Under the pieces are notes generated by a model. The model was not told where the DNA came from, ran no database searches, and worked only from the letters and a program-made list of their open reading frames with translations. Shown in pieces: positions 20,082 to 27,940 of a stretch of DNA of 64,000 bases. Positions within the stretch are counted from its first letter, which is position 1, and each line of letters opens with the position of its first letter. Source of the DNA: Escherichia phage ECO340P1; the sequence record OP172791; one strand, 5' to 3'. The translations under genes were made by a program, and so were the position numbers.

Positions 20082-22757
20082 TTAGTCGTAATATTTCAAA
20101 CCTGTAATGAACTTCGATCCCCAATCCGCACTTGCGGCGGTGAACGTCAACATCCAAGTTGTAGCTGTACCAGTGAAGACCTCTCGTTGCACAGTACCAT
20201 CAGTGTGGTAAATGTCCACGCCAGTATGTCCATTCTTAGGAATAGTGAAGGTAACAGCACTGGTAGTGTCTCGTGCATAAGAACAAACAAATGGTGTCCC
20301 CGCCCAAACTGGATTTGTCATATCACCCATCTCAAGCTGTGGAACCCAAGCAATAAGACCTGCCGTACCATCTCCTGCGAAAGTGTCTGATCCACTTGCA
20401 TTCAAAGCTATAATCTCATAGGTTATAGATGCTTGTTTGGCAACTGTCACTTTGTGTAGAATTACACGATACCAACCGTTCCCCATATCGATTATGTTTG
20501 CATCTGCACCTGTAAATGTTCCAGCTACAAGATCATAAGTCCCTTCGTTAATCTCATCTCCTGAAGTCAATTTGAGTTTCACTTTAGTGATCCCGTCTGG
20601 CTTCAAGAATACGGATGCCGCCCAGTGCTTACCTGCTGTAATATCAGAAGCTGTATTCACTGCTGATAAAATATGTTGTCCTGAAGTTGTAGAAGGTGTT
20701 AACTTGTAAGTGTTAGCCGTAGTTCCAACCGGAGAGTTGATTGTTGATGCTGTGACTGTCAAGTTCGTCTTCAACCACGGGGAAGCTGTTGTCAAGTTAT
20801 TGTTGATAAAGATATGTGTACGGTTGGCTGCTACAACACGTCTACCTTGTGGAGTTGTACCAACATATTCTAAAGGTGCTACGGGAGCAGAACTCTCTGT
20901 AGGTACAAGGATATCTCCAGAAGCCCTGGCATAACGGTTACTCCTGTTGACCTTTACATCCGCCGGAATAGTTTCTTGCGTCAAATCATAGTCCATCACA
21001 ATGACCACAGCATTCACTGTGAGATAAGAACTATCTTCGGCAGTTACCACACCTTGATAAGTTGCTCTACAACCGATACGACAACCTCCATCAGCAACCG
21101 CTGTAATAACGCCTGTAACGGGGTCAACTGTTGCTACCGTAGGGTCATTAGAGAAATACTCAACAACCACACCAGGTAAGCTTGCTGCTCCTGTTGGCGT
21201 TATTTCTGCTACCATTGTTTGTGTTGTTCCTACATCCATCGCAGATAAGCTAGGAGTGTAAACGCTCAATGTTGAAGCATATCCTCCAGAGGTATCTGAT
21301 AAAGTTGTTCCTTCAGCGTTTAAGGCTGTCATACCTGCATCAAAACCACCTTCTGCATGGAAAGTCATTAAACCAGTAGATGATATTGTCATGTTTGCAG
21401 GGGCAGAAGAAGTGTATTTAATATTGAAAAGTTTACCTCCTTCTGGGCTAACAGAATGTGTCAACTGTTTAGTTCCACCTACAATACAAATTCCTAAAGA
21501 ATCTGTAGTTAAGCCAGTTGCCAGAATATCACCCGTAATCACGGAGCTTGCTATTGGTGTGAATTTATTATAGTTTAGACCACTATTGAACAGATACGAG
21601 GCTTTCCCATCTTTCCAAATACCGGAATAATACATATCCCCGTTATAAACGAAAAAGGTTCCTTGATAACCTAATTGGTTAGTAATATCCATATTCAGCG
21701 TATGAACGCTTGTGAGCTTGTTTATATCCCAGGAACCCACTCCTTCAGGTTTAACTGGTTTTCCCACTTGGAGTGGATCTCCGCTCGCAGAATCATACCC
21801 CAAACCTAAGTTTGCAGTGTAGTTCTTACCAATAGCCCACAAGGAATTGTTGATCCCAACGAAAAAAGAGTGGCGGCTTGGTGGAAATTTCCATGTTGAG
21901 AAACCTGCTGCAAAGGTATCCAGTTTAGTGTAGGTTGTTTCTGTATTAGACCTGACATATAAGTAGTTTACCGTGCCCGTACCACCGGAGGTATCTCCTA
22001 CAACTATTGTCTGGGAAACTGTATTGATGTAATCTTTGACATACACTGTTTCAGTAGCGGATATCGTGGCATTGACAAAAGCGGTTGTTGTGTTATTATT
22101 ACCTGCTAAACCTTTACTAGCTCCACAAACACGCAAGGTTCCCACATTGTTGACATAAGAGCATTGGTTGTAACCTGCATCAAAAGCAACTGCTGAACTT
22201 GTTATCTGACGAGGAGTAGAAACTTCGTTAGTAGTGCTTGCACCTAAACTACCTACTGTGTTTTGACCCGATCCATAAAGAACACCACTATTCATTAACC
22301 AGAGAGTATTGTTATACCCTCCTTTAACCTCTTTAAGATTGGCTAAAGAAATAGTCCCTGTTATTACAGATGGAAAGCTGGTCCAAGTAGTTACACATGC
22401 ATCCGTACCACCTGCTGCTATAGATCCTACCAACCCTGCTGTCAATCCTGAATATTGCCATCCCCCACTGTTAGTTTTAATAACAAAACAACGATCTGCG
22501 GTAAACACATCCGCTACTACAGTAGAAGCTAAGTGGAAATTATTGAATCGTGCACTACGAGTTCCATCTGCAATCTCACCAAAGAGGTTTGCGCCTTGAG
22601 TAAACAATCTACCATCATTAAGCAAAATTGCCAAACTGCTGTTAGAATTACCAGCGTTATCTGGGTAATCTAAAGTAATTACTTTTTTAACAATACCTGC
22701 TGGCAGAGGAACGACACCAGTGCTGGTCATAATAGTAAATATTGGAATTGGAAACAT
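20082..22757 (-). CDS. tail fibre / receptor-binding protein
   Basis: 891 aa, Gly/Thr/Ser/Asn-rich beta-type composition; last gene of the tail fibre block. Confidence 0.6.
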   Translation of the reverse strand: MFPIPIFTIMTSTGVVPLPAGIVKKVITLDYPDNAGNSNSSLAILLNDGRLFTQGANLFGEIADGTRSARFNNFHLASTVVADVFTADRCFVIKTNSGGWQYSGLTAGLVGSIAAGGTDACVTTWTSFPSVITGTISLANLKEVKGGYNNTLWLMNSGVLYGSGQNTVGSLGASTTNEVSTPRQITSSAVAFDAGYNQCSYVNNVGTLRVCGASKGLAGNNNTTTAFVNATISATETVYVKDYINTVSQTIVVGDTSGGTGTVNYLYVRSNTETTYTKLDTFAAGFSTWKFPPSRHSFFVGINNSLWAIGKNYTANLGLGYDSASGDPLQVGKPVKPEGVGSWDINKLTSVHTLNMDITNQLGYQGTFFVYNGDMYYSGIWKDGKASYLFNSGLNYNKFTPIASSVITGDILATGLTTDSLGICIVGGTKQLTHSVSPEGGKLFNIKYTSSAPANMTISSTGLMTFHAEGGFDAGMTALNAEGTTLSDTSGGYASTLSVYTPSLSAMDVGTTQTMVAEITPTGAASLPGVVVEYFSNDPTVATVDPVTGVITAVADGGCRIGCRATYQGVVTAEDSSYLTVNAVVIVMDYDLTQETIPADVKVNRSNRYARASGDILVPTESSAPVAPLEYVGTTPQGRRVVAANRTHIFINNNLTTASPWLKTNLTVTASTINSPVGTTANTYKLTPSTTSGQHILSAVNTASDITAGKHWAASVFLKPDGITKVKLKLTSGDEINEGTYDLVAGTFTGADANIIDMGNGWYRVILHKVTVAKQASITYEIIALNASGSDTFAGDGTAGLIAWVPQLEMGDMTNPVWAGTPFVCSYARDTTSAVTFTIPKNGHTGVDIYHTDGTVQREVFTGTATTWMLTFTAASADWGSKFITGLKYYD

Positions 22758-22798: not shown

Positions 22799-24823
22799 TT
22801 ATCGTGTTACAACAACCATGTCCACGATATTACCCACACCAGGATACGTTAATTGCAAAATTGTTACTGCGTTAGCAGTAGTTGCTATTTCTGTATCATT
22901 CAGTGCTCCATAAGACGCATCTAGTGTAACCGTGTGTCCCGTTGTATCTTGAATCAAATAAATCATTGCTGAAAATGCTTTAGGTTTTGTAGATCCAGTG
23001 ACACCAGGCCATGCTCCAACTGTCAGAGCGTCAGTTACTGTAACAACATACATATTGGAAGTTCCAGAAGGAGTCCAAGATGCTCCAGAGTTGGCAGTAG
23101 TTGTTTCAAGTTCCATGAAACCTGCTGTAACTTTAGTTGGTGTTATAGCTTCTGTAGGATCTGATCCTGATATTTCGATCCAGTTCCCATCAGAACGACC
23201 ATACGTCAAGCCGTCTTGAGGTGCTTCTGGTATACTAGGAAGAGTTCCTATAAGTGTCCACGTAGAAGAATCTGTTTTCTTGAACACTGCTCCAGTGGTA
23301 GTATTGAAGGCGTAATCATTGATAACACCATCTCCTGCGACTGGATTAGTTGTTGCTACAAACCACTGTGCGCCGTCCTTACCGTTGGTCCCATCTGTAC
23401 CGTTGGTTCCGTTTGTTCCAGGATCACCCTTATCTCCTTTATCCCCTTTTTCACCTTTGTCGCCTTTAATACTTCCCATGTCAACAAAAGATGCGGAATT
23501 GGTGTCTTGATCGTAGGTATAGATATAAAGATTACTAGTATCTTCAGTTAAGTAGGCATCACCATAGTTATTATAAACAGGGAGAGCTTCACTGTTCGGA
23601 ACATGACCTTTAGCTGTAATTGATGTTCCTCCAAGACTGCCAACATTCATCCATTCTGTAGCATCTTGAACCCAAACATACAAATCATTATTAATTTTAT
23701 ATGCATCACCTACTTCTCCAGTAGGAGGAAGTTCAGCTTCACTGTTCAGAACCCCGATAATCTCTAAGCCTGATCCTGTTGCACCCACTGGTCCTTGTGG
23801 ACCTAGTTCACCTTGTGGACCTCGCTCTCCTTGATCACCCTTGTCTCCTTTTGGACCTTTAAGTGAGTCAATAAAATCTACTTCTGTCCCTTCATTACCA
23901 GCATCCAGCCAACTTTGATATGCAGATTTCCCTTCATCTCCATCTGTTCCATCAAGACCGTCTTTACCTGCCTCACCTTGTGGACCTTGAGGACCAACAA
24001 TATTACCCATGTTGACCCAAGCTGTCCCATTAGAGACATAAAGATTACCATTGATAGAATAAGCTTGGCTTACGTTTTCAGAGTTAGGTTGTGGTAAGTT
24101 ACTTGTAGAAGGTAAATCCCCACGATAATCAAAACCGTTGGCGTTAACACCAGGTGCTCCCTGTGGCCCTGTAGGACCAACATCACCTTTATCACCTTTT
24201 ATAGAGGTAAGAAAGTCATAAACAGATCCTGTATTACCATCTGCCAACCATACCTCATAAGCTGATTTCCCTTCTGGTCCAAGAGAAGAAATAAGTTTCC
24301 AAACAGAACCATCCCAAGCATAGATTACATCGCCTACGATATAACCGTCCCCTGCAACGTTACCTGTAGATGGTAGCTCACTAGTGCTTGCTAATGATCC
24401 TTTAATATTAAGTTGAGCACCAGTATCTCCTTTCAAAGAAGCAAGCCATTGTGCTTCTGTTCCAACAAAACCATTATCAAGTGCGATCTGATAAGCTGAT
24501 TTACCAGCTTCAGGTATTGTTTCCGACAGATCATCGATCTGTTGCTGCACTGCCGTAAACTTGGCATTGATAATTGCTATATCATCAGCGGTCCCAACAT
24601 TTTGCCATGCAAGGGAAGAAATACCACCTGTGGTGGCTGGTGTAGAGTTTGCTGGAACTACTTTAGGAAAAGTTCCTTTCCATTGGTAATAATTCCCTTC
24701 TGCTGCTAACAGCAAAACTTCACGGGAATTACGTAATGTAAAACCTGCCTCAAAACTGCGACGTTTTCGATAAGTAGCTTCTACCAGATCGGCTATCGCA
24801 CTATTAGGTCTTGTTAAATTCAT
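22799..24823 (-). CDS. tail fibre protein with collagen-like Gly-X-Y repeats
   Basis: Several runs such as GDKGDVGPTGPQGAPG and KGDKGEKGDKGDKGDPGTNGTNGTDG, interspersed with repeated GKSAY modules. Confidence 0.65.
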   Translation of the reverse strand: MNLTRPNSAIADLVEATYRKRRSFEAGFTLRNSREVLLLAAEGNYYQWKGTFPKVVPANSTPATTGGISSLAWQNVGTADDIAIINAKFTAVQQQIDDLSETIPEAGKSAYQIALDNGFVGTEAQWLASLKGDTGAQLNIKGSLASTSELPSTGNVAGDGYIVGDVIYAWDGSVWKLISSLGPEGKSAYEVWLADGNTGSVYDFLTSIKGDKGDVGPTGPQGAPGVNANGFDYRGDLPSTSNLPQPNSENVSQAYSINGNLYVSNGTAWVNMGNIVGPQGPQGEAGKDGLDGTDGDEGKSAYQSWLDAGNEGTEVDFIDSLKGPKGDKGDQGERGPQGELGPQGPVGATGSGLEIIGVLNSEAELPPTGEVGDAYKINNDLYVWVQDATEWMNVGSLGGTSITAKGHVPNSEALPVYNNYGDAYLTEDTSNLYIYTYDQDTNSASFVDMGSIKGDKGEKGDKGDKGDPGTNGTNGTDGTNGKDGAQWFVATTNPVAGDGVINDYAFNTTTGAVFKKTDSSTWTLIGTLPSIPEAPQDGLTYGRSDGNWIEISGSDPTEAITPTKVTAGFMELETTTANSGASWTPSGTSNMYVVTVTDALTVGAWPGVTGSTKPKAFSAMIYLIQDTTGHTVTLDASYGALNDTEIATTANAVTILQLTYPGVGNIVDMVVVTR

Positions 24824-24886: not shown

Positions 24887-27800
24887 TTAGGTTGTTGGCA
24901 CATCTACTACTGGCGTTGGGCGAATAACTGCAGTATTACCTACAGAAACATTACTGGAATCATTAGGTATGGTTTTAATTCTAACTCCAGCACTTGTAGG
25001 CGTTACAATTGGATCTGCAATGTCTATTTTAACTGGGTTAGTCCACGTATCATTATCTTGATAAGGTGCACGAGTAATAACTGTGTCCAAATCTGCTCCA
25101 CCTACGCCAGCACCAGGAATACGGATACGTGTCCCTGCTGACAGAGGGTAATGATACAACCAAGAAGCATTTGTTGCTGTCCCGTTAGGAGTCAAGTTCT
25201 GTGTCAGGAAGGTATCTCCTGCCTGTGTAGCTCGAATACCGAAAGCTGGGATATCTGGAATATATGCCCCACTTGTTGTTACAAGGAAGAACGTATTATC
25301 CGCCTTGACTATCATATCACCTTTGTCAAACTCTTTCCCTGTTGGGAAATGCATTCCATCAATGTTTCGACTAGGATTAGGCTCTAAGTAATAAACTTTG
25401 CCCGTTGTCCCTACAATAGCTCCAATACCACCTGCGATATTGGTATACATATTAGCTTCAACATTACAGTTGACACGATGAATATCCGAGTAACGGCAAC
25501 GGCTCCACTGTGGACGACCAGTAACCATCGTCTTGCCATCTGGGTAACAGTTTACGTTAACCATTTCAAGAACAGATTTTTCTCTACGGAAGAATCCATC
25601 ATAAAATGTCCCTGGACCAGATTCAGGTTGACCAACACAATCGAAGATATTACAGGTGATGTTAGACATTGAAAGCCAAGAAGCTATACCGAACAACTGC
25701 AATGCAGCGCAACGAATATTTTCAAAGCTAACTCTGTTTTCATAACCTGGCCCAGCGGAAACTCCCGCAAAAACACGCCCAGTTTTGGTGTGAATGTTAC
25801 GAACAGAATAGTTAAAACATGGATTTGAAGGTCTGCCCTGTGCCGGAACTACCGGATTACCCTCTTCGTCCAGAACTGCGTTAGTTCCCCACTCCAAATA
25901 AATCATACGGATATTACTTGCAAGTGTGCTACCGTCTGTTTTAGGCTCTCCATAAACACCGTCAATCGTAAAATCTTTACTTCCGTACATTACAACTGCG
26001 CCAGTTGCCAAACCTGTCCCAACAGATACAGTCTGATCTGGATCGCCATGAATGTTTTCGATAGAGATATTACGACCAACTTCTACGTGGACAATCTGAC
26101 GACAACGTTTTGCAAAAACGTTACGAATTGTAATATTCTTGCAATATTGATCATCAGGGATTCCGTAACCATATGGTCCTTTACCAGCTACACCGATACC
26201 GATACCCCAGTTGGACAGAGGAATAGGAGCGTTAGTCCCATCGATATTAGACAGGTAAATATTCTCAATCACACAACCATCGTCATAATGTTTATTGATG
26301 ACGTTCAGTTCTATTGCATCACCTTGCATGTCCATGAAGGTAAGGTTACGGAAGACACCACGTGTTACTGGTTCCCCTGTTCCTTGTTGAAGGATGCCAT
26401 ACAACCCGTTTTTAAAAGTACAGTTATCAATTTCAAAAGTACCTGATATTGGGTTGCCTTGGAATACCAAGCTACCAACTTGACCTGCGCGAGGAGCACC
26501 GTCCCACAAACAATCGAACATGCGCACAGCACCACCCCAATACATAACACGAGAGTTACGGAAAGTTGTGCCTTCTACTGTAGCATTTTGCACACGATAG
26601 TCGCGTTGACCACGGAACACACCCCCACGCAAAGTGATACCTTGAATATCAAAAGAGCTTGTCGTGAAAGTCATATCGCAACCGTAAGCATCGAGAATCT
26701 TGCTTTTCGAAGATTTTGCTGCTAACAGTGCCGCTTGGAAAGCTGCTTCTGGTGTGGTATAGGTAGTTGTATTGTTAGCAAATTCGGACAAGTAGACAAC
26801 ATCGAATAAATCGTTGTATGTTCCACCACGAGGGGTTAACAGTCCTTCTGTATTAGTCAGAACCCATGCATTTGGACCTAATCCTCCGCTCGTCTCCAAG
26901 GTATCGGAAGCCAAAATACTTTTTGGTAAACTTCCAGCCCAACGATAACGACCAGCGCCACGTCCAATCGTCTGATTTTTAGCTGTCAGAGTTACATTAT
27001 TACCAAAGCTTGTAGGCAAATGAACAAACTGTCCACGCTCAACAGCCAGTGCAGAAAGGTCTACAGATCCTCCAGAATAAGTCATTACTCCAGAAACAGA
27101 CAAGGATGTTAAAGTGCCTGTAATGTTAGGAGGTAATGTGTAGGAAGACTGCGCTACCGGATCATACAGAGCTTTAATCCCTGTTAACGATTGACCTGCT
27201 GTTGCGTAAGCCACCTCATCATCTAACAAACCATACTTACGAGCAATAGTTTGCAGAGGGACTTTATCCATGCTTTCTGTTAGTTCTTCCGTTTTTGTTT
27301 CTAAACTAACAAGACGGTTCTCTAGATTAGGATCTGTATCTGCTGAAGCTACGATTTTGCCAATATAAGCAAAAAGTTTGTTTGGCAGTCCTGTTGCAGG
27401 ATCGTGTCCCAAAGGTTCAGATAAGATGATCTTACTATCTTCTATACGGAAAGCTTCCCCCAGAACCTGAATAACACCATTGATCGTAACAATAGCACTA
27501 TCAAAGATGTAAGGAGGACTAATTACTGTTTCATAACCAGTTGCACCAGAATATACCCAAGGGGTGACTTCTGTTGCCAATTGTTCTGTCTTCAGTCCCC
27601 ACAATACCCAGTTGTTATCTCCTACTGGAGTCCCTTGCATAGGGATTGGGTTAACCAATGTAGCGTTAGGGGCATAGTAATAACCGCTCAATACTCCATT
27701 CTGGAAATAACGAAGTTGGTTAAAAACTGTTTCGTTTGTGCCTTGCGCCCAATCCAATGGGCTTTTAAAGAAAAAGTTGTCAACAAGGGCTTTTCTCAGG

Positions 27801-27940
27801 GTTGGTATCAACCCTGATTCTGTTTCAATACTCTCTGTAGCACTTCCATTAATAACATCATGGAGTTGGTTAGATGAGAAAATAACCAGGTCTACGCCCT
27901 GTTCGAGAGACGTTGCTGGATATGTTGGGAATGTTGCCAT
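24887..27940 (-). CDS. tailspike protein, probable right-handed beta-helix depolymerase
   Basis: 1017 aa; central region has periodic N/G/V/I-rich repeats (NITIRNV, NISIENI, NIRMIYLE) typical of parallel beta-helix tailspikes. Confidence 0.55.
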   Translation of the reverse strand: MATFPTYPATSLEQGVDLVIFSSNQLHDVINGSATESIETESGLIPTLRKALVDNFFFKSPLDWAQGTNETVFNQLRYFQNGVLSGYYYAPNATLVNPIPMQGTPVGDNNWVLWGLKTEQLATEVTPWVYSGATGYETVISPPYIFDSAIVTINGVIQVLGEAFRIEDSKIILSEPLGHDPATGLPNKLFAYIGKIVASADTDPNLENRLVSLETKTEELTESMDKVPLQTIARKYGLLDDEVAYATAGQSLTGIKALYDPVAQSSYTLPPNITGTLTSLSVSGVMTYSGGSVDLSALAVERGQFVHLPTSFGNNVTLTAKNQTIGRGAGRYRWAGSLPKSILASDTLETSGGLGPNAWVLTNTEGLLTPRGGTYNDLFDVVYLSEFANNTTTYTTPEAAFQAALLAAKSSKSKILDAYGCDMTFTTSSFDIQGITLRGGVFRGQRDYRVQNATVEGTTFRNSRVMYWGGAVRMFDCLWDGAPRAGQVGSLVFQGNPISGTFEIDNCTFKNGLYGILQQGTGEPVTRGVFRNLTFMDMQGDAIELNVINKHYDDGCVIENIYLSNIDGTNAPIPLSNWGIGIGVAGKGPYGYGIPDDQYCKNITIRNVFAKRCRQIVHVEVGRNISIENIHGDPDQTVSVGTGLATGAVVMYGSKDFTIDGVYGEPKTDGSTLASNIRMIYLEWGTNAVLDEEGNPVVPAQGRPSNPCFNYSVRNIHTKTGRVFAGVSAGPGYENRVSFENIRCAALQLFGIASWLSMSNITCNIFDCVGQPESGPGTFYDGFFRREKSVLEMVNVNCYPDGKTMVTGRPQWSRCRYSDIHRVNCNVEANMYTNIAGGIGAIVGTTGKVYYLEPNPSRNIDGMHFPTGKEFDKGDMIVKADNTFFLVTTSGAYIPDIPAFGIRATQAGDTFLTQNLTPNGTATNASWLYHYPLSAGTRIRIPGAGVGGADLDTVITRAPYQDNDTWTNPVKIDIADPIVTPTSAGVRIKTIPNDSSNVSVGNTAVIRPTPVVDVPTT

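Follow-up and report, generated by a model that had tools for sequence, protein, structure and literature searches.

Collagen-like Gly-X-Y runs separated by repeated modules in a tail fibre protein of Escherichia phage ECO340P1

Does the collagen-like gene of Escherichia phage ECO340P1 encode a tail fibre built around collagen helices, and do its repeats allow the length of that fibre to change? The question stems from an initial annotation of a 64,000-nucleotide stretch of this phage's DNA (sequence record OP172791; the whole stretch is hereafter called the window), which described a tail fibre in which uninterrupted Gly-X-Y runs alternate with repeated GKSAY modules, the underlying nucleotide repeats being recombination-prone and possibly allowing fibre length variation. 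The coordinates given there match exactly one open reading frame (ORF), which encodes 674 amino acids on the minus strand (Table 1). With a probability of roughly 0.8, we regard its product as a homotrimer that forms a segmented side fibre in the multi-fibre adsorption apparatus of a Phapecoctavirus, with short collagen helices expected between folded nodes.

Four uninterrupted Gly-X-Y runs were counted in the protein, numbered here from the N terminus (Table 1); the string quoted in the initial annotation, KGDKGEKGDKGDKGDPGTNGTNGTDGTNGKDG, is part of run 4. Thirty-five triplets lie in runs of at least four, compared to a mean of 0.7 in 2,000 shuffles of the same protein, and the longest run in a shuffled protein averaged 2.5 triplets and was never above 7. 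The protein also passed the Pfam Collagen profile (PF01391) with 46.5 bits against a cut-off of 27.2, and in a six-frame scan of the whole window, runs of at least five triplets were confined to the fibre ORF. When 12 orthologs were aligned, the periodicity was maintained: the Gly columns of runs 1 to 3 were 94 to 100% conserved, while the X and Y positions were the least conserved of the protein. In the same alignment, all 13 gap blocks within collagen columns were multiples of 3 residues, ranging from 3 to 27, while the 12 blocks elsewhere had sizes of 1, 2 or 5 residues; collagen columns contained 51 of the 70 gap columns, though they make up only 17% of the alignment.

The composition of the runs is also informative, as 30 of the 70 X and Y residues are charged and 10 are proline, and 7 of the 35 triplets are KGD or KGE. 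In the collagens of bacteria and viruses, such triplets are reported to make triple helices more stable and to occur beside interruptions (PMC11923368), and experiments on collagen-like tail fibres of prophages have demonstrated stable trimers whose triple helices are capped by trimerisation domains (PMC3368898).

The tail fibre identity proposed at the outset was supported at the sequence level by a full-length match to PHROG 15437 (tail fiber; E = 0, residues 1-674 aligned with profile positions 1-655 of 656), by an N-terminal Tail_spike_N domain and by a genomic position that ends the baseplate and fibre block. At the nucleotide level, the gene is 98.7% identical to that of phage BI-EHEC and 98.1% identical to gp087 of phAPEC8 (NC_020079 96254-98278, "tail fiber protein"), while gp151 of phi92 is an ortholog with approximately 60% amino acid identity; judged from its sequence, the source DNA is Phapecoctavirus (Stephanstirmvirinae). 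Altogether, the results support that collagen-like repeats are present in the sequence of a tail fibre, for which a triple-helical structure and a location in the virion would be expected.

Outside the collagen runs, the protein proved richer than the initial annotation had suggested, with six kinds of element rather than two; the B modules, the foldon homolog and the tip domain described below had gone unnoticed. From the N to the C terminus, the order is N-terminal domain, coil, A1, B1, A2, run 1, B2, run 2, A3, run 3, B3, B4, run 4, B5, foldon and tip. The alternation of runs with GKSAY modules thus holds roughly, the 48-residue B modules being interposed in the actual order. The Tail_spike_N region matches the N-terminal parts of CBA120 TSP1/3/4 and of other tailspikes in the PDB, and the short helix that follows in an AlphaFold2 (AF2) model is probably a coiled coil, which in a fibre of this kind would be trimeric.

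The repeated GKSAY modules (A modules) were confirmed as three copies, with the motif at residues 107, 185 and 298; each is approximately 30 residues long, follows the consensus GxxGxSAYxxAVxxGFxGTxxxWLxSLKG and is modelled by AF2 as two short helices. We considered homology of the A module to designed ankyrin repeats and rejected it, since the PDB matches extended over only 14 residues (GKTPFDLAxDNG, E 0.0015-0.05) and reflect a resemblance in helix-turn-helix pattern. The B modules, of approximately 48 residues, occur in four clear copies and one degenerate copy with the consensus GxGLxIxG..LP..GDxY.I...Y.W...W.N.G...GPxG, and are modelled as four strands each with a predicted local distance difference test (pLDDT) score of approximately 75-90. 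Scans of the A-plus-B region, the foldon region and the tip as isolated segments gave no Pfam match, and no Pfam family was found for the A or the B module in our Pfam scans. In 120 homologs, we counted 631 B modules, 594 A modules and 885 collagen runs with a median of 8 triplets, 76% of the runs being directly followed by an A or B module, figures that are biased because this set was chosen by similarity to the query.

Downstream of the last B module, residues 531-552 are homologous to the foldon of T4 fibritin, with an hhalign probability of 96.9% (E 2e-10, 59% identity over 22 residues) and a phmmer E value of 1e-4 for the foldon motif against fibritin chains; the Fibritin_C family (PF07921) gave no match in the protein even at E values up to 10. 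Homology between the B modules and the foldon was rejected, as hhalign gave a probability of only 10% over 14 columns, leaving residues 531-552 as the only foldon-homologous part. As a separate observation, the foldon-like motif EAPxDGxxYxRxxGxW occurs in tandem in many uncharacterised proteins, with up to 14 matched stretches per protein; it seems to be a repeat of fibre shafts in general, beyond its use as a cap at the C terminus. The tip domain, whose assignment to PF26209 was taken from precomputed annotation, was C-terminal without exception in approximately 25 other protein clusters; this distribution rests on an exhaustive search, a word-indexed search with the C-terminal 147 residues having returned three fragments only. 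The domain is common to tail-fibre proteins of rV5-like phages and to the C terminus of the putative tail fibre of phiTE (9cuy_g).

The suggestion that repeat number and hence fibre length vary across relatives also proved right. Run 1 has 6 triplets in all 25 orthologs and relatives, and the ranges among orthologs are 5-11 triplets for run 2, 8-10 for run 3 and 3-13 for run 4. Among close relatives, the micro-indels were of 9, 18 and 9 bp, and all three lie in run 4. Phage ASO2A has a 9-bp deletion that removes one GTN triplet (window positions 23412-23420), and iGC_PHA_EC001 has an 18-bp deletion that removes two KGD triplets (23430-23447); both of these within-genus deletions fall inside the imperfect 9-bp tandem arrays found in run 4 by Tandem Repeats Finder (TRF). 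The third is found in the sister genus, where ECGD1-type alleles carry a 9-bp insertion relative to phi92 that takes run 4 from 6 to 7 triplets. The 9-bp arrays have 2-5 imperfect copies with 72-100% match, and exact direct repeats in the gene reach 15 bp at most. Since the gene is exactly 2025 bp long in approximately 95% of about 55 close relatives, length change is slow and does not act as a rapid switch. Whole-triplet slippage thus does occur, but slowly, and the description of the nucleotide repeats as recombination-prone, right in kind, was overstated given this near-constant length and the shortness of the exact repeats. There was no sign of codon scrambling, in which successive Gly codons would avoid identity and so suppress DNA repeats (10 adjacent identical pairs compared to 11.6 expected, P = 0.31).

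Recombination left a trace of a different kind in phages anhysbys, nepoznato and WPEC1, which are 96-100% identical to the window across the gene save for one patch of approximately 300 bp. This patch, at gene nucleotides 930-1230 (window approximately 23594-23894), has 50-70% identity and spans run 3 and B3, with the length unchanged and the 10 triplets kept; from its sequence pattern, it is a cassette exchange by homologous recombination. Two further records were left out of the length-variation evidence. In vB_EcoM_EP57 (OR544956), an in-frame deletion of 486 bp removes run 3, B3, B4 and most of run 4; repeat-mediated recombination was rejected as its origin, since the junction has no microhomology, the genome is only 130.7 kb with many shortened genes, and both neighbouring fibre genes are much shorter than in relatives; an assembly that collapsed, or a phage with heavy deletions, is the suggested explanation. 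In SKA64 (OM362897), a 76-bp tandem duplication of A1 (gene nucleotides 319-394) breaks the frame, with only the downstream 549 amino acids annotated, and it was not accepted as a functional module duplication for this reason; either the module was truly duplicated and one base was misread in sequencing, or the assembly is at fault.

These features fit together in a model of the fibre. Three chains would attach to the particle through the N-terminal Tail_spike_N domain and the short coiled coil, and would then form a shaft of four short collagen triple helices acting as stiff spacers. Collagen rises by 0.286 nm per residue, which gives calculated spans of approximately 5, 7, 8.6 and 9.4 nm for the four runs, or approximately 30 nm of helix in total. 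Two kinds of small folded node, the helix-hairpin GKSAY modules and the 48-residue beta modules, would separate the helices; foldon and nodes most likely nucleate them and keep their register, and the many KGD and KGE triplets would add stability. The foldon homolog and the C-terminal beta-sandwich tip would end the fibre, the tip being the likely distal end that contacts a receptor. Over evolutionary time, shaft length would be adjusted by in-frame gain or loss of whole triplets, at approximately 0.86 nm per triplet, some of the change arising from slippage in the imperfect 9-bp tandem arrays, and modules would also be swapped as cassettes through homologous recombination.

Several points weigh against this model. 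Every collagen run has a pLDDT below 35 in the AF2 monomer model, and the runs are short and poor in proline, so that their stability would depend on the flanking nodes; in a 2026 cryo-electron microscopy study of phi92, gp151 was fitted to neither fibre II nor other density and its function was called uncharacterised (PMC13450770). The near-constant gene length and the biased choice of homologs noted above belong here as well. The low model confidence, the low proline content and the run lengths of 6-11 triplets could also be read as signs that the Gly-X-Y stretches serve as flexible, glycine-rich linkers or hinges that join trimeric globular nodes, and the GenBank note on phi92 predicts a coiled-coil centre without mentioning collagen. 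Flexible linkers, however, have no reason to place Gly at every third position or to gain and lose residues only in multiples of three; moreover, an enrichment in KGD and KGE is typical of triple helices (PMC11923368), and related prophage proteins do form them (PMC3368898), so we consider linkers very improbable. It is also unlikely, if somewhat less so, that the protein is a head, neck or whisker fibre and not a baseplate tail fibre, given that the PF18668 family at its N terminus occurs in baseplate-attached tailspikes, that genes for a colanidase tailspike and another tail protein flank it where the baseplate and tail-fibre block ends, and that tail-fibre proteins of rV5-like phages and phiTE have the same tip domain.

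What the differences in triplet number mean is a closer call. They could represent near-neutral drift of a tolerant spacer, not adaptive tuning of reach, with the large differences arising mostly by cassette exchange and not by slippage. That length is fixed in most close relatives, that X and Y positions evolve fast, that the DNA repeats are short and imperfect and that the 300-bp patch over run 3 and B3 was exchanged with no change in length all speak for drift, while the invariance of run 1 across the 25 orthologs and relatives indicates that some run lengths are constrained, and run 4 holds each of the three independent micro-indels of close relatives, including, in its 9-bp arrays, both of those within the genus. 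On balance, we consider drift a serious possibility, somewhat short of an even chance. The model of a segmented fibre with collagen helices between folded nodes remains the reading we prefer.

A bolder proposal concerns the B module, hundreds of occurrences of which were found in phage fibre proteins beside short collagen runs. It may be an autonomous node for collagen trimerisation and registration, i.e., a viral equivalent of the trimerisation domain of collagen XV/XVIII, either convergent with it or distantly homologous to it. We hold this to be doubtful; if true, the B module together with the foldon would account for the chaperone-free folding of many triple helices that are short and poor in proline, and the module would be a new compact building block for engineered segmented collagen fibres.

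Table 1. Positions in the window of the fibre ORF, its parts and the adjoining terminator-like element.
Feature	Position	Strand	Basis
Whole ORF, 674 aa (amino acids), collagen-like side tail fibre	22799..24823	-	PHROG 15437; orthology to phAPEC8 gp087 and phi92 gp151
Tail_spike_N (PF18668), aa 12-77, proposed particle-proximal anchor	24593..24790	-	E 1.9e-19, 70 bits vs cut-off 25
Short alpha-helix, aa 79-102	24518..24589	-	AF2 model
GKSAY module A1, aa 104-134, helix-turn-helix	24422..24514	-	Profile; two short helices in AF2 model
Beta module B1, ~48 aa	24275..24415	-	Repeat profile; four strands in AF2 model, pLDDT ~75-82
GKSAY module A2, aa 182-212	24188..24280	-	Profile
Collagen-like run 1, 6 triplets, aa 210-227	24143..24196	-	Gly-X-Y count
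Beta module B2	23993..24136	-	Repeat profile
Collagen-like run 2, 8 triplets, aa 277-300	23924..23995	-	Gly-X-Y count
GKSAY module A3, aa 295-325	23849..23941	-	Profile
Collagen-like run 3, 10 triplets, aa 323-352	23768..23857	-	Gly-X-Y count
Beta module B3	23627..23770	-	Repeat profile
Beta module B4	23462..23620	-	Repeat profile
Collagen-like run 4, 11 triplets, aa 454-486, with two imperfect 9-bp tandem arrays	23366..23464	-	Gly-X-Y count; TRF
Degenerate fifth beta module B5, aa 487-527	23243..23365	-	
Foldon-like beta hairpin IPEAPQDGLTYGRSDGNWIEIS, aa 531-552	23168..23233	-	T4 fibritin foldon homolog
C-terminal beta-sandwich tip domain, aa 557-674	22802..23155	-	PF26209; AF2 pLDDT 82-93
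Terminator-like GC hairpin and T run, directly 3' of the stop codon	22777..22796	-	Same element annotated in ASO2A and phAPEC8

The fibre gene closes the baseplate and fibre block, preceded by the gene for a 1017-residue colanic-acid-degrading tailspike and followed by that for an 891-residue RCC1-like/Big_2 tail protein, with terminator-like hairpins on either side of it. The position after the colanidase tailspike is kept by the fibre gene here, by phAPEC8 gp087 and by phi92 gp151. Both neighbours have features of their own. In the upstream tailspike (24887-27940, minus strand), the Tail_spike_N domain is internal (residues 302-361), behind an N-terminal extension of 300 residues that could, by analogy with branched tailspike complexes, serve as a docking platform for other fibres. 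The downstream protein (20082-22757, minus strand) joins an RCC1-like beta-propeller region to Big_2 Ig-like domains, which is an uncommon combination in a virion protein.

Neither the gene nor its collagen-like character is new, both being annotated in dozens of phage genomes, and the protein is an ordinary kind of phage fibre. GenBank names in use include "tail fiber" and "collagen triple helix repeat protein" (PV191315), and in the BASEL phages, the gene is named "lateral tail fiber protein with type I collagen domain". In the phi92 record (NC_023693), a coiled coil is predicted for the centre of gp151 and the N terminus is given as a potential domain for capsid binding; collagen goes unmentioned there, in conflict with later annotations of the same family. 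We also noted the fibre gene, at 80-99% identity to that of Escherichia coli Phapecoctavirus and Justusliebigvirus, in phage records labelled as Campylobacter, Acinetobacter, Klebsiella, Pseudomonas and Serratia phages; such host labels may be wrong, or the phages may be polyvalent.

The finding itself is of little weight, as gene and collagen character are annotated and collagen-like phage fibres have been known since 1998. What it adds is a map of anchor, segmented shaft, foldon and tip that can guide fitting and mutagenesis of the unplaced phi92 gp151 and phAPEC8 gp087. The strict rule that indels come in multiples of three residues, together with the hot spot in run 4, makes the gene a clean natural experiment on the evolution of fibre reach, and designers of recombinant collagens may take an interest in the A and B nodes, which are widespread and unnamed.

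Among known systems, gp151 of phi92 and gp087 of phAPEC8, side fibres of the Stephanstirmvirinae, are full-length orthologs with the same module order, and nothing essential differs; the run lengths in phi92 are 6, 6, 9 and 6 triplets compared to 6, 8, 10 and 11 here. In BclA, a strain-variable number of Gly-X-Y repeats sets the length of the filament. BclA and the proteins Scl1, Scl2 and Lcl resemble the fibre in having helices without hydroxyproline that are stabilised by charge pairs, but they are cell- or spore-surface proteins with one long run, and no LPXTG anchor or C1q-like domain was detected here; the NCBIfam matches to Scl1, Lcl and Scl2 were far below the family cut-offs (60 compared to 400 bits).

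The first description of collagen-like sequences in the tail fibres of phages dates from 1998 (Smith et al., cited in PMC3368898). The EPclA-type side fibres of E. coli O157:H7 prophages (Ghosh et al. 2012, PMC3368898) likewise combine collagen with a coiled coil and a C-terminal trimerisation domain, and are modular and recombining. They are built with the domains PfN, PCoil, PfC and Pf2 (PF08400, PF06820 and PF03406), none of which was found here in Pfam scans, and unlike in EPclA, A and B nodes divide the collagen of the present fibre into four short runs. Compared by Foldseek, the AF2 model matched best with the capsid spike gp52 of Pseudomonas phage Pa223 (PDB 9NY6; E 2.2e-5), a trimeric beta-rich spike with a C-terminal knob, and the same match has been reported for phi92 gp151 (PMC13450770). 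The closest parallel for the end of the shaft is the foldon of T4 fibritin, which is C-terminal and follows a coiled coil, whereas its 22-residue homolog here is internal, lies approximately 45 residues downstream of the last collagen run, follows a beta module and precedes a tip of 120 residues. The same pairing of collagen and foldon has been made in engineered fusions (PDB 1NAY and 9GFR), in which the foldon is used to nucleate triple helices.

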